A DNA stretch of 64,000 nt, taken from the NCBI RefSeq assembly GCF_013167455.1, contig NZ_CP038328.1. One strand, given 5' to 3'. Shown here one piece after another: positions 24,001 to 30,000 of this stretch. Position 1 is the first letter of the stretch. The number at the start of each line of letters is the position of its first letter. The stretch comes from Escherichia coli O157:H7 (GTDB taxonomy: Bacteria; Pseudomonadota; Gammaproteobacteria; Enterobacterales; Enterobacteriaceae). Position numbers: made by a program.

Positions 24001-27000
24001 TGCTGAATACCGCATCAATGCCGTACTGGTGCACCACTTCCACGCCATCACCCAATACGCCAGCAATCCCAATCACCGGTACATTAAACTGCTTCGCCAC
24101 CGACGCAACGCCCAGCGGCGCTTTACCGCCTGCCGTTTGCGAGTCAATGCGCCCTTCCCCGGTGATCACCAGTGCTGCCCCCTGCACCGCCTGCTCCAGG
24201 TTGACCGCCCGCAGTACAATCTCAATACCCGGTTTAATATCCGCATTGAGGAATACCGCCGCCGCAATCCCCATACCGCCCGCAGCGCCACCGCCCGCCA
24301 TCTGGCAGACATTAATTTCAGTTTGCTGTTGTAAAACACGGGCGTAATTTTGCAGCCCCTGTTCAAGTTCTTCGACCATCTCCGGCGTTGCCCCTTTTTG
24401 CGGGCCAAACACCGCCGCCGCGCCGCGTGCCCCTACCAGCGGGTTATCAACGTCACATGCTACTTCAATATGGCAGTTCGCCAGACGCGGATCGCATTCC
24501 TCCATCTCAATGCTTGCCACGCGCGCTAAATTGCCGCCGTTAGCCACCAGCACCTGACCGTCGGCATCAAGGAAACGCACACCGAGCGCCTGCGCCATGC
24601 CCATACCGCCGTCGACCGTCGCACTGCCGCCAATGCCGAGAATAATATGGCGAATGCCGTTATCCAGCGCATGACGAATTAACTCCCCCGTACCAAAACT
24701 GGAGGCCAGCAACGGATTACGCTTTTCAGGCGCGACCAGCATCAGGCCACTTGCTGCCGCCATCTCAATCACCGCCGTTTTCCCGTCGCCGGTAATGCCA
24801 TAAAAAGCATTCACTTTTTCGCCCATCGGCCCGCAGACTTCAAGCGTCACGATGTTGCCGCCCGTCGCGGCGACCATCGCATCCACCGTCCCTTCGCCGC
24901 CATCCGCTATCGGCAAACAGATATAGTTCGCATCGGGAAAGAGGGTCGAAAACCCGGCTTTAATTGCCTGACAACATTTTTCTGCACTCAAGCTCTCTTT
25001 AAAAGAGTCTGGCGCAATGACAATCTTCATTATCAATCCTTTTTCAACAAATTATTCGATGCGTTCCCACGGAATAAGGTTATCCATAAGAACAGCCAGT
25101 AAAATCCCGACCAATAAGCCGTTACTGAGCAGAGGACGAAGCGTTAATGGAAGGTCTTGCAGATACACAGGCGGTAATGCCATTAAAAATATGCCGACAA
25201 ATAACGGCAATGCGAGTCGATAAATATTGCGAGCGGTAAACGTTATTTGCTGGCTAAACACCAGCGCGGAAAAGAGTAAAGGTAGATAAGAAACCAGCAT
25301 GACCGCACTACTCACGGGTAAAGGGATACTGCAAAACAGTCGCGTGAGTGCCGGAACCAGCGCCACCAGCAGGCAAATAACGCTGCCATAAATAAACGAA
25401 CGCCGCGTGTAATCGCCAGTCTGGGTTAATAAACCAATGGATGAAACAAACGGTGAAAATGGAATTACTGCCAGCGGCACGGTTATCAGTGTCATAAATC
25501 CGGTCGCCACAAAGCTACGACGATAACGCGTATTCCCCGCGCCCTGCTGCGGATAAAAAACATCCGTGCCCCGAATCGCACCGTAGGTATTGCTGATATT
25601 CACCAGACCTGTAATCACCGCCGTCAGAATAATCCCCGGCGACAAAGCACCGCCACTGCCGAGCGGGAACCACTGCCAGTGCAACTCACCGGAGAGCGAA
25701 TGCGAAGAAGGAAAGCAAAAGTACCACAACAACCAGCCGGTTATGGTGCCGACCAGCAGGCCATAACGGGCAAAACGTTGCGGCAGAAAGATAATCATCG
25801 CCAGTACCAGGCACATCACCGCCACCGAGAGCGCGAACGGCGGTAACTGAATTTTAAAATTCGGGTCGGCTATGCCAAACGGCAGCCCGAGCATACCTTT
25901 GAAAAAGATAGTGGTCAGCTGCGCGCCCAGCATCAACATAAACAAGACCATCACCGACGGCGTAAATAACCGCGCCAGGCGATGACCTAATCCGCTAAAA
26001 CCAATCAACATCGTCAGCACGCCGGAGAGTGCAATCCCCACCGCCAGGCTGGTAGCGATATCGTTGATCGGTGTCCCGCGCGATGCTTCGCCAAGGGTGA
26101 TAGTTAGGATGGTTCCCCACCACAGGCCCCCCGGCCCTTCCATAATAGCGCGACGATGACCGCAAAACGCCTGAGCGAAGCAGGCCAGTGCGGTAGCAAG
26201 AAAAGCATATTGCGTGAGCGTAAGCAGGCTACTTTGCGGCAACTGAAAAGCAGAAAGTAGCGTAGGAGGAACCACAACCGTGTTGCAAAAAATAAAGAAA
26301 AACCACTGAAATCCTGATAACAGGCTTTCGCGGCTAACTGCAAAATTGAACATAAACACACCTTAACCGGAGAATGCCCGCCGCAAGGACGGGCATTGCA
26401 GGGGCCAGATTACTGCTGATGTTTAAGGATAAATTGACCTTTCGGCGCAACAGGGAAGCCCTGTTCGATGTCGTAAATCACATCACCACGTAAGATGGTT
26501 TTCGTGATACGCGCGCCAATGGTACGGCCAACATACGGGCTGACTTTGTGGCGATATTCCAGATCGTCATTGGTAAGAACATAGCTGCTATTCGGCTGAA
26601 TGAAGACGAAGTCGGCATCTTTTCCTGGGGCGATACGGCCTTTTTGCTGCAGACCAAAAATATCTGCTGCGTTAGTCGCCATTAATTTGCCGAACATTGG
26701 CAGAGACATTCCGCGTTTCTGTACCGCTTCATCGAACATCACGTCCATACAGTTTTGCAGACCGGCAATACCGCCCCATGCTTCCATGATGTTGCCGGCT
26801 TTCATTTCCGGAGGGCATGGTGAGTGGTCGGAAACCAGGCGGTCGATTTCACCGTTAAACAGTTTTTCCCACATGCCTTTCTAGTTTTCCAGATCGCGGA
26901 TCGGCGGTGAACACTTCGCCAGAGTACCGATTTCTTCGAACTGATCGGTATCCAGTACGAAGTAATGCGGGCAGGATTCACAAGTAACGTCCTGACCTTC

Positions 27001-30000
27001 CTGACGTGCACGAGTCACTTCTTCAACGCCTTCCGGGCTGCTGATATGGCAAACGTGCAGACGGCAACCGGCAACTTTCGCCAGATACAGCACGCGGCGA
27101 ATCGCTTCCACTTCGGTAAATACCGGACGCGAAGCCACATAGTCATGGGCAGTTACGCGACCTTCACGTTTCGCTTCTTCGCCCAGTGCGTCACAGATCA
27201 GCGCGTTTTCGCAGTGCACCAGCACCGGCTGCCCCAGTTCGCCCAGCTTCTGCGCACCTTTGAAGAACTGCCAGTCGTTTACATCACGGAAGTCGTTGTC
27301 GATACCGCGATCGCCACAGGTCGCAACGAAGCATTTGAAGCCGACAACGCCCACTTCATCCAGCTCATGCAGACGGTCGATGTTGTAAGACACCAGGCCA
27401 CCGAGTTGTGCCGCATCGATAGTCAGCTTGCCTTTAGCGGCATCGAACTTCAGTTCAATTGAAGCGCGGTCAACCGTTGCAGGCAGCTGGTTGAGCGGCA
27501 TTTCGATCATGGTGGTGATACCACCTTTTGCCGCTGCGCGAGTACCGGTTTCATAACCTTCCCAGTGGCTACGACCCGGTTCAGAAATATGGGTGTGCGC
27601 ATCAACCATGCCCGGCGAAACCACCAGACCAGACGCATCCATAACTTCTTTTGCATCGCCCAGATCCTGACCGATAGCAGCAATTTTGCCGCCTTTAACG
27701 GCGATATCTACAACGCGAGCTTCGTTTTCTAAAATAACGGTGCCGTTTTTAATGATTAAATCAAAAGACATAACAAACTCCTTGTAAAATACAGATTGGT
27801 TTTTAACTCAAGCAAAGGCGACGATGACGCCGACAAACCATGAAACACGCGATAACGGTTCCATTAAGGGAATAAACTTACCGCCAAGAGATAAAATAAC
27901 GGCCACCAGAGTTACTGAAAACGCGGTGAGGTTAAAACCGTTATCGTAATATTTATAATCGCCAGGTGCGGTGTACAGTTCATCAAGATTAATTTGCCCA
28001 CGCATCACCACAAAATAATGCGCCATCATGACACCAATTACCGGACCAAGCATTCCGCCGATAATATCGAGGAACAGATAAATACTGTCCTGATTTTCCA
28101 TTAATTTCCACGGGCAGATCAGCAGGCTGATAATACTGGCAATCAGTACGCCGTTTTTATAGGTCAGTTTTGTCGGTGCAATGGCAGCAATCTGATAACC
28201 AGCCGGAATAATATTACCAGTGGCGTTAGTGGAGATAGTCGTCATCAGAATAACCAGTACCGCAAAGAACGAGGCAAACAGGCTGTCCCAACGCTGAACA
28301 ATATCCAGCACGTTCCAGGTATCAGCGCCGTAATGAATACTGGCTCCGGCAATAATACATACCCCCGCGACCGCAAACAGAATATAGGCCACAACTAAAC
28401 CCAGCGTTTGCCCCAGCGCTTGCTCACGAAACGAGTGGGCGTTTTGCGTAAAGTCGGATGCGCTCACCGCCGGTGCCGCCCAGACCGCAACTACCGCGTT
28501 AATCACCACCAGGAACAAGAATCCACTGTTTTCTGCTTTCTGAATACCGCTCGGAATGTAGTCAAAGATTGGACCGAGCCCGACCAGCGAAATCGCCCAA
28601 ATCGCCATACCGCCGAAAACGATATAGATGCACGGGTTAAGAATGGCAGTGAATTTATTTAAAACTTTGCCACCGCCAAAACCTATACCAACGTTGACCA
28701 GCCAGAAGAGTAAGAAAGTAATTAAGCCCGGTAGAGAAAGGCCTAACAGAGTGAAATCACCACCGAGAGTCAAAAATCCCGGCCAGATTTTGCCAATCAG
28801 AATCAAGCAGGCCAGTGACCCCGCGTAACATTGCAGGCCAAACCACATAATGGCAGCAATACCGCCTCTTAATAATCCGGGAAACAGTGCGCCACGTACG
28901 CCGTAAGAAGCACGCAGGATCATGGCAAACGGTACGCCGTATTTACTGCCCGCAGCGCCGTTTAATACCATTACCGCGGCAATGAAAAAGGCGCTGAGGA
29001 TAATTGCCAGCATAATACTAAAGGTAGACAAGCCGAGAATAAAAAAGCCGCCGACCATCACATAATTGGGAACGTTATGAACCGAACCCATCCATAAGGT
29101 AAAATAGTTAAATGTTTTCCAGGTCCGCTGGCTTTGCGTTTTCGGCAATAGATCTTCGCTATAGCCGCGTTGCTGGAATAGTTTTCTCTGATGTTCCATA
29201 AATCCCTCTTAATTTCACGTATCGAATAACGTTGTTTTAATCTAGCTATGAGGAAAAAATAAAATAAAAATATTATTTTTAATACTGAAGCAACATCTTT
29301 GGCTGCTTTCTTTTTTAATATTGCTGGCCGATTCATTTTTTGATATCGGCCATTTTTATTGCGGGTATCAGGCCAGTTTATGGTTAGCCATTAATTCCAG
29401 CGCCTGCACTAACGCAGAGTGATCCAACTGGCTGCCACCGTTTGCCGCGCAGGTATTAAATAACTCCTGGCAGGTCGCAGTGTTTGGCAGGTTCAGAGCC
29501 AGTGCCTTCGCACTTTGCAGTGCCAGGTTGAGATCTTTCTGGTGCAGCGCAATTTTGAAACCTGGATTAAAGGTGCGTTTAATCATGCGCTCACCGTGAA
29601 CTTCCAGAATACGTGAGGAAGCAAAGCCGCCCATCAGCGCCTGGCGCACACGTACCGGGTCTGCACCGGCTTTTGAAGCAAACAGCAGAGCTTCAGAGAC
29701 CGCTTCAATATTGAGCGCTACGATAATCTGATTTGCCACTTTGCAGGTTTGACCGTCGCCGTTACCGCCCACAAGGGTGATATTTTTACCGAGCAGTTCA
29801 AACAGCGGTTTAACACGTTCAAATACCGCTTCGTCACCGCCAACCATAATTGACAACGTCCCTTCACGCGCGCCGATTTCGCCGCCGGAGACTGGCGCAT
29901 CGAGATAATCACCACCCAGTTCATTCACCTGACGAGCGAAACGTTTAGTTTCAATCGGTGAAATGGAGCTCATATCAACAATGGTTTTGCCCTTCAGCGA

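Follow-up and report, generated by a model that had tools for sequence, protein, structure and literature searches.

The allantoinase gene allB of typical Escherichia coli O157:H7 is very probably a lineage-fixed loss-of-function pseudogene, silenced by one C-to-T change that turned glutamine codon 297 into an amber stop (Q297*). We studied it in a window of 64,000 nucleotides (the whole stretch analysed here, numbered from its first base) from contig NZ_CP038328.1 of RefSeq assembly GCF_013167455.1, which matches E. coli O157:H7 at >99.9% identity. Minus-strand positions 26410-27771 translate as a single allB frame of 453 codons followed by the natural TAA, and the sole internal stop is at codon 297. 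The listing of open reading frames (ORFs) gives two that share this frame, 26881-27771 (296 aa) and 26410-26874 (154 aa, starting at Met300); listing and translation thus agree on the arrangement described in an earlier note made from the sequence alone, two minus-strand ORFs split only by the TAG at 26881-26883. When joined, their translation aligns over residues 1-453 with the E. coli allantoinase structures 8HFD (1035 bits) and 3E74 (1031 bits), with a Gln opposite the stop, and this end-to-end alignment to allantoinases rules out a chance juxtaposition of two ORFs.

The same note held that the pieces together would span a normal allantoinase of about 453 aa, and this is borne out by profile scores. 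The cut-offs are 688 bits for the AllB equivalog NCBIfam NF005960 and 357.85 for TIGR03178; against NF005960 the protein with Gln restored scores 1000.1, the N-terminal fragment 641.9 (profile positions 1-296 of 453) and the C-terminal fragment 332.7. The N-terminal fragment does exceed the looser TIGR03178 cut-off (434.1 vs 357.85) but spans only positions 1-287 of 441 in that profile. AllB (EC 3.5.2.5) is a cyclic amidohydrolase with a TIM-barrel fold. Its binuclear metal centre is held by H59, H61, carbamylated K146, H186, H242 and D315, all of them essential (PMC9863593). All six ligand codons are present in the window, with D315 18 codons past the stop, so that it is not in one polypeptide with the other five; the proposal that part of the catalytic apparatus is removed is in this way upheld. 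The functional E. coli enzymes (K-12 3E74, BL21 8HFD) and the window gene are alike in the alignment of residues 1-453, in the six ligand codons and in the allW-allB-ybbY-glxK context; the window differs by the stop in place of Gln297 and, relative to the BL21 enzyme, by A196, I243 and R311. To judge from its sequence, the DNA is allB by descent, and no product that it is predicted to encode without recoding would qualify as an allantoinase. Translation would end after residue 296. The product would be short of Asp315, of the closing portion of the barrel and of the C-terminal chain, and such a 296-residue protein could not be an active allantoinase.

Under anaerobiosis, allantoin can supply E. 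coli with nitrogen by way of AllB, AllC and AllE (PMC11326118; PMC12535856). With AllB truncated, allantoin would no longer be opened to allantoate, and AllW-mediated uptake should fail too, given that deletion of allB in K-12 abolishes that uptake (PMC10163214). Extrapolating from K-12 genetics, we infer that allantoin should no longer serve typical O157:H7 as a source of nitrogen under anaerobiosis. K-12 work cited in PMC12535856 also ties allB to adaptation to long nitrogen starvation.

The history of the stop was traced with an allele in which TAG was replaced by CAG before searching against genomes. Over the full 1362 nt it matches 11 genomes at 100.0% identity: O55:H7 CB9615, RM12579, DEC5A, DEC5B, DEC5D and TB182A, sorbitol-fermenting (SF) O157 493/89, O157:H7 PV15-279 and F3113, and two without a stated serotype. 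PV15-279 is a beta-glucuronidase-positive O157:H7; in those of the 11 that were inspected, allB is annotated as intact (WP_000006888.1). O157:H7 LSU61 likewise has CAG. As the reverted allele and the undamaged allB of these relatives agree at every base, the stop is a single derived C-to-T transition. The CAG-to-TAG change that the earlier note had thought likely is what the O55:H7 strains, 493/89, LSU61, PV15-279 and F3113 reveal, and the comparison with reference allB that it called for gives both the full-length alignment to 8HFD and 3E74 and, for the reverted allele, identity to the intact O55:H7 gene. By contrast, the window allele itself is 100% identical to those of O157:H7 EDL933 (1362 nt), TW14359, EC4115, Xuzhou21 and many more.

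Of 5,338 complete genomes with a match, 293 carry the exact 59-mer centred on the TAG; the other E. coli genomes, some 5,044, differ at this 59-mer, and CAG is present in every inspected genome outside typical O157:H7. One further genome, O157:H7 C1-057, keeps the TAG and bears an 8-bp deletion (GATCTGGA, allB nt 877-884) directly upstream, for which RefSeq labels the gene 'frameshifted'; this deletion is either secondary pseudogene decay or an assembly artefact. A 59-mer for the hyi substitution K101N (window 30821) is exact in 294 genomes, equal to the total for the allB TAG (293 + 1). From this equality of counts it follows that the amber is fixed in typical O157:H7, that revertants are absent and that a base-call error is excluded. 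K101N is present in the window, EDL933 and Sakai and not in PV15-279, F3113, 493/89 or CB9615, and the same is true of G328S in ylbE/allG (window 17580, codon 328). K101N is the only change checked as co-extensive with the amber; ylbE G328S and synonymous changes in allS and allC were seen in three lineage-I genomes only.

Typical O157:H7 (A6) arose out of the beta-glucuronidase-positive clonal complex A5, of which PV15-279 is a member (PMC6256406). Since PV15-279 has CAG, the mutation is placed on the A5-to-A6 step, the same step as the uidA frameshift that typical O157:H7 carries and beta-glucuronidase-positive O157:H7 does not (PMC6256406). Two changes in allB hint at secondary decay: the C1-057 deletion, and E330D (GAA to GAT) in Sakai alone, past the stop at the equivalent of window codon 26782-26784 and absent from the window; these two are too few to be told from ordinary drift in a young clone. 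We considered whether A196, I243 and R311 (the last near Asp315) might be decay after inactivation and rejected this, as all three are ancestral and shared with the intact O55:H7 allele. An excess of substitutions in the all cluster after the knock-out was likewise rejected: there are ~10 differences in 25 kb relative to PV15-279, a density not above that of the flanks (left, 24.8 kb, 8 differences outside rhs; right, 14.4 kb, 2 differences).

At the level of annotation the lesion is already known, and we claim no discovery of it. RefSeq describes the EDL933 gene as 'allantoinase AllB, internal stop' (EDL933_RS02925, formerly Z0666/Z0667) and the Sakai gene as pseudogene allB_1 (ECs_0573, formerly ECs0573/ECs0574). 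The supplements of Zhou et al. 2010 list a non-synonymous allB single-nucleotide polymorphism (SNP) of the O157 lineage at 632543, within 1 bp of the T of the TAG, which is 632544 in the current Sakai record; an entry 'Sakai 632644 ns allB', 101 nt on, matches E330D, and CB9615 G2583_0632 is mapped there to ECs0573+ECs0574 and Z0666+Z0667 (PMC2806823). Our literature search for a discussion or phenotype of the O157:H7 allB stop returned supplementary-table entries only, one apparent hit (PMC2704369) proving to be a mere coincidence with the string 'all_bases', and a 2024 paper on the pathway lists O157:H7 with the downstream genes, leaving the broken first enzyme unmentioned (PMC11326118).

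Several points weigh against treating the gene as dead. As a terminator, UAG with A as the next base falls short of the strongest, and read-through by near-cognate tRNA-Gln, the usual misreader of UAG in E. coli, would insert the wild-type residue, so that traces of full-length enzyme are possible. The in-frame ATG of Met300, 6 nt after the stop, could permit reinitiation. The suppressor check described below covers the supE type; tyrT, serU, leuX and others are further possible amber suppressors. The remaining pathway genes are intact, which fits a recent loss and is no proof that the pathway is dead, and a literature search found no report of growth of O157:H7 on allantoin or of its allantoinase activity. 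The supplements of an O157:H7 proteome study do not have the queried locus tags among their entries and are uninformative either way on the fragments.

That the TAG is an error of sequencing or assembly in this record, the real gene being intact, has practically no chance of being true. In a lone raw sequence a substituted base and an error look alike until other genomes are compared, but the identical 59-mer recurs in 293 independently sequenced complete genomes, including the Sanger-finished Sakai and EDL933, and the distribution of the TAG matches that of a second, unlinked clade marker, hyi K101N, exactly (293 + 1 vs 294). The base-call error by which the earlier note thought its reading might fall is thus disposed of, the TAG being retained in 294 genomes. 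Its other proposed escape, an amber suppressor, belongs to the more general view that the gene still works because the codon is decoded by a suppressor tRNA or by efficient read-through, with Gln restoring the wild type. The ancestral residue is indeed Gln, the context of the stop is TAG-A and the other regulon genes stay intact, yet for supE at least the suppressor fails: in EDL933 the genes glnX-glnV-metU-glnW-glnU-leuW-metT have the anticodons CTG, CTG, CAT, TTG, TTG, TAG and CAT, so that glnV and glnX are of wild type (CTG) and no supE-type suppressor is present. The only tRNA gene in the window is for Arg-TCT. A tRNA-Gln with a CTA anticodon (supE) occurs in 155 complete genomes, and the 60 listed are all K-12 laboratory derivatives, none of them O157. 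Where E. coli has no suppressor, spontaneous read-through usually stays far below 1%, and the frameshifting deletion beside the TAG in C1-057 and the downstream substitution in Sakai are as expected without selection. Decoding of the amber to an effective degree is, on these grounds, very unlikely. Programmed recoding at the UAG, whether by pyrrolysine or by conserved read-through, was rejected, as the stop arose secondarily and occurs in a single clone, and neither the window nor the EDL933 gln cluster has a tRNA with a CUA anticodon.

It is also difficult to envision a split enzyme, in which ribosomes reinitiate at Met300 and the 296-aa and 154-aa fragments assemble non-covalently into an active allantoinase or a regulatory one that binds AllW or GlxK. 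The ATG is close to the stop, nearly every genome has kept the downstream ORF free of damage, and across the two fragments all six metal ligands are kept. However, AAAGG, as a Shine-Dalgarno sequence, lies only 1 nt before the Met300 ATG, a poor spacing that is hardly usable, and residues 297-299 would be missing. The C-terminal ORF equals that of the ancestor because the clone is young, which says nothing on selection, while the C1-057 deletion frameshifts the end of the N-terminal fragment and Sakai has E330D in the other. We hold this arrangement to be extremely unlikely, and return to the Q297* pseudogene as the preferred reading.

Other members of the O157 complex have lost the same pathway in another way. 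SF O157 493/89 (L006 16911-19369) has an intact allB and an allC split by IS30. The identical allC::IS30 junction is found in six complete genomes: 493/89, LSU61 and the unrelated EcPF16, KFu022, PCP06173 and KH_005; it looks like a target hot spot of IS30. In LSU61 a second IS30 lies in allW and the allB-ybbY-glxK-allE-allC' segment between the copies is inverted, and EcPF16 has a similar IS30-bounded inversion together with an IS1 in allE. These alleles block the pathway one step downstream of AllB, and by insertion rather than point mutation. The allantoin pathway is accordingly broken at least twice, independently, in the O157 complex (allB Q297* and allC::IS30).

A further cluster of changes was seen between allR and gcl, where four independent substitutions fall within 27 bp in the O55/O157 complex (window 32926-32952, minus strand; L001 6820-6846). 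This stretch runs from the palindrome TTGGAAAATTTTTCCAA to the gcl start codon. In 493/89 the palindrome has a G-to-A change; the other three are A-to-G changes in the gcl ribosome-binding region, at -9 in PV15-279, at -15 in a sublineage of typical O157:H7, and further at -13 in EDL933, Sakai, Xuzhou21 and WS4202. The window allele, GGAGG, is exact in 48 genomes, and the GGGGG allele, exact in 94, includes that of EDL933, which carries -15 too; most typical O157:H7 genomes keep the ancestral AGAGG. At the background rate found in this alignment, a Poisson model predicts 0.021 events for 27 bp, and P(4 or more) is 8.6e-9, or ~2e-4 when corrected by multiplying by the number of positions. The predicted pairing of Shine-Dalgarno and anti-Shine-Dalgarno sequences is -8.2 kcal/mol for the ancestral leader, -10.6 for the window and -9.7 for EDL933. 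A seven-genome alignment had placed the -15 change on the branch of the amber, and this was abandoned when nine more O157:H7 genomes proved mostly ancestral; the change came afterwards, within a sublineage only. The cluster may mark a mutational hot spot, or it may reflect selection on how the gcl operon is expressed.

The same lesion might have been positively selected, if dropping allantoin catabolism or altering flux through the gcl operon was advantageous in the emergence of O157. The hits that the sister lineage took independently (493/89 and LSU61 each have allC::IS30, and LSU61 has allW::IS30 and an inversion besides), the absence of revertants among 294 genomes and the four gcl leader substitutions in 27 bp in the same clone complex all speak for this, as does the degradation of allantoin genes in Salmonella Typhi, Paratyphi A, Gallinarum and Typhimurium ST313 lineage II/D23580 (PMC4372345; PMC6056856). 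In these Salmonella, as in O157:H7, the same pathway including allB was lost by point mutation or deletion in a recent pathogenic clone while relatives keep it. There, however, nonsense SNPs or deletions have hit several genes (allB, allP, gcl, gip, ybbW), whereas in typical O157:H7 it is allB only, by one nonsense codon; and O157:H7 colonises the gut and is not a systemic pathogen, whereas the Salmonella cases are host-restricted or invasive. Against selection, relaxed constraint too would be expected to yield two events in so small a clade, four unrelated strains with one and the same allC::IS30 junction argue for a hot spot of IS30, and the all cluster has a SNP density that does not exceed that of its flanks. 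A clone that has expanded recently can moreover fix a mutation by hitch-hiking alone; the uidA frameshift arose in the same lineage (PMC6256406). We consider a selected loss rather unlikely. It is unlikely, too, that the allantoin/glyoxylate locus was a repeated target of selection from O55:H7 to O157:H7, with adaptive rewiring of glyoxylate-branch expression, a reading built on the two knock-outs together with the four gcl leader substitutions; if that were true, such rewiring accompanied the emergence of the O157:H7 pathogen.

Both the ORFs and the annotation support the earlier note where it calls the rest of the regulon intact in appearance (Table 1), with the caveat of hyi K101N, ylbE G328S and allC T337P. 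The window is collinear with EDL933 NZ_CP008957.1 ~595,117-659,116 in reverse orientation, with 8 substitutions and one indel, and the EDL933 annotation was mapped onto it as w = 659117 - EDL933 coordinate. The order gcl-hyi-glxR-allW-allB-ybbY-glxK, under AllR control, is the same as in the annotations of EDL933, O55:H7 and K-12; gcl, hyi and glxR are glyoxylate-branch genes lying upstream of allB, and allR and allS encode regulators. Downstream of allB, ybbY and glxK may suffer polarity from the nonsense codon. The allC change T337P (ACC to CCC, window 22634, codon 337, plus strand) occurs in the window and in only four complete O157:H7 genomes (ECP19-598, 17B6-2, G5295 and FRIK1989) and is not in EDL933, Sakai, PV15-279, 493/89 or O55:H7; it is potentially a disruptive change in the next enzyme of an already blocked pathway.

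Table 1. Features of the allB locus and the surrounding allantoin regulon, in window coordinates
Feature	Position	Strand	Description	Basis
allB pseudogene	26410-27771	-	453-codon frame with one internal stop	translation, structure alignment, NF005960 profile, EDL933/Sakai annotation
Premature amber	26881-26883	-	TAG at codon 297; derived T is window base 26883; ancestral CAG (Gln)	genome comparison
N-terminal fragment	26884-27771	-	codons 1-296, translatable; ligands H59, H61, K146, H186, H242	ORF, NF005960
Downstream ORF	26410-26874	-	same frame, Met300 to natural stop; residues 300-453 including Asp315; product expected only upon reinitiation or read-through	ORF, NF005960
Codon 315	26827-26829	-	GAC (Asp315), sixth ligand of the binuclear metal centre	translation
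allW (ybbW)	27808-29199	-	allantoin transporter, directly upstream of allB; intact	ORF and annotation
ybbY	25052-26353	-	downstream of allB; intact	ORF and annotation
glxK	23885-25030	-	downstream of allB; intact	ORF and annotation
gcl	31136-32917	-	intact	ORF and annotation
hyi	30347-31123	-	intact; K101N at window 30821	ORF and annotation
glxR	29368-30246	-	intact	ORF and annotation
allE	22872-23657	+	intact	ORF and annotation
allC	21626-22861	+	intact; T337P	ORF and annotation
allD	20555-21604	+	intact	ORF and annotation
allF/fdrA	18571-20238	-	intact	ORF and annotation
allG/ylbE	17302-18561	-	intact; G328S	ORF and annotation
allH/ylbF	16476-17291	-	intact	ORF and annotation
allK/ybcF	15586-16479	-	intact	ORF and annotation
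allR	33007-33822	-	intact	ORF and annotation
allA	33900-34382	-	intact	ORF and annotation
allS	34612-35538	+	intact	ORF and annotation

We also note some features elsewhere in the window: (i) The giant BapA-related adhesin gene siiEA occupies ~57605-64000 on the minus strand and extends past the window end. The annotations of EDL933 and PV15-279 both make it a pseudogene with an internal stop, and intact type I secretion genes follow. (ii) An argU-like tRNA-Arg(TCT) gene at 2159-2235 (minus strand) adjoins envY, ybcH and nfrA, as judged from EDL933 coordinates, with no prophage between. In K-12 the prophage DLP12 lies at argU; in the window this attachment site appears unoccupied. (iii) In an RHS core gene (~38170-42370; L005 1-900), CB9615 differs from all O157 genomes by ~40 substitutions in ~800 bp, a recombination-like block, and PV15-279 differs from the window by six clustered changes at 41686-41736.

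Silencing of a metabolic enzyme by a single small lesion has precedents in typical O157:H7. In addition to the uidA frameshift, a base substitution in ureD leads to early termination and a urease-negative phenotype, according to Nakano 2004 as cited in PMC1431545. The three cases concern different genes and pathways, and uidA and ureD each have a diagnostic phenotype, whereas none is described for allB. The ureD stop is probably an amber that supE hosts can suppress.

Our analysis confirms the pseudogene call of the reference annotations and places the lesion on the A5-to-A6 step, and it makes the allB amber a clean lineage marker (294 of 294 genomes) to stand beside the uidA frameshift. Such potential for discovery as there is lies solely in the side findings, namely the convergent knock-outs and the hot spot in the gcl leader. 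In metabolic models of O157:H7 the step from allantoin to allantoate should be dropped, and O157:H7 may differ from commensals in allantoin uptake and in adaptation to nitrogen starvation.

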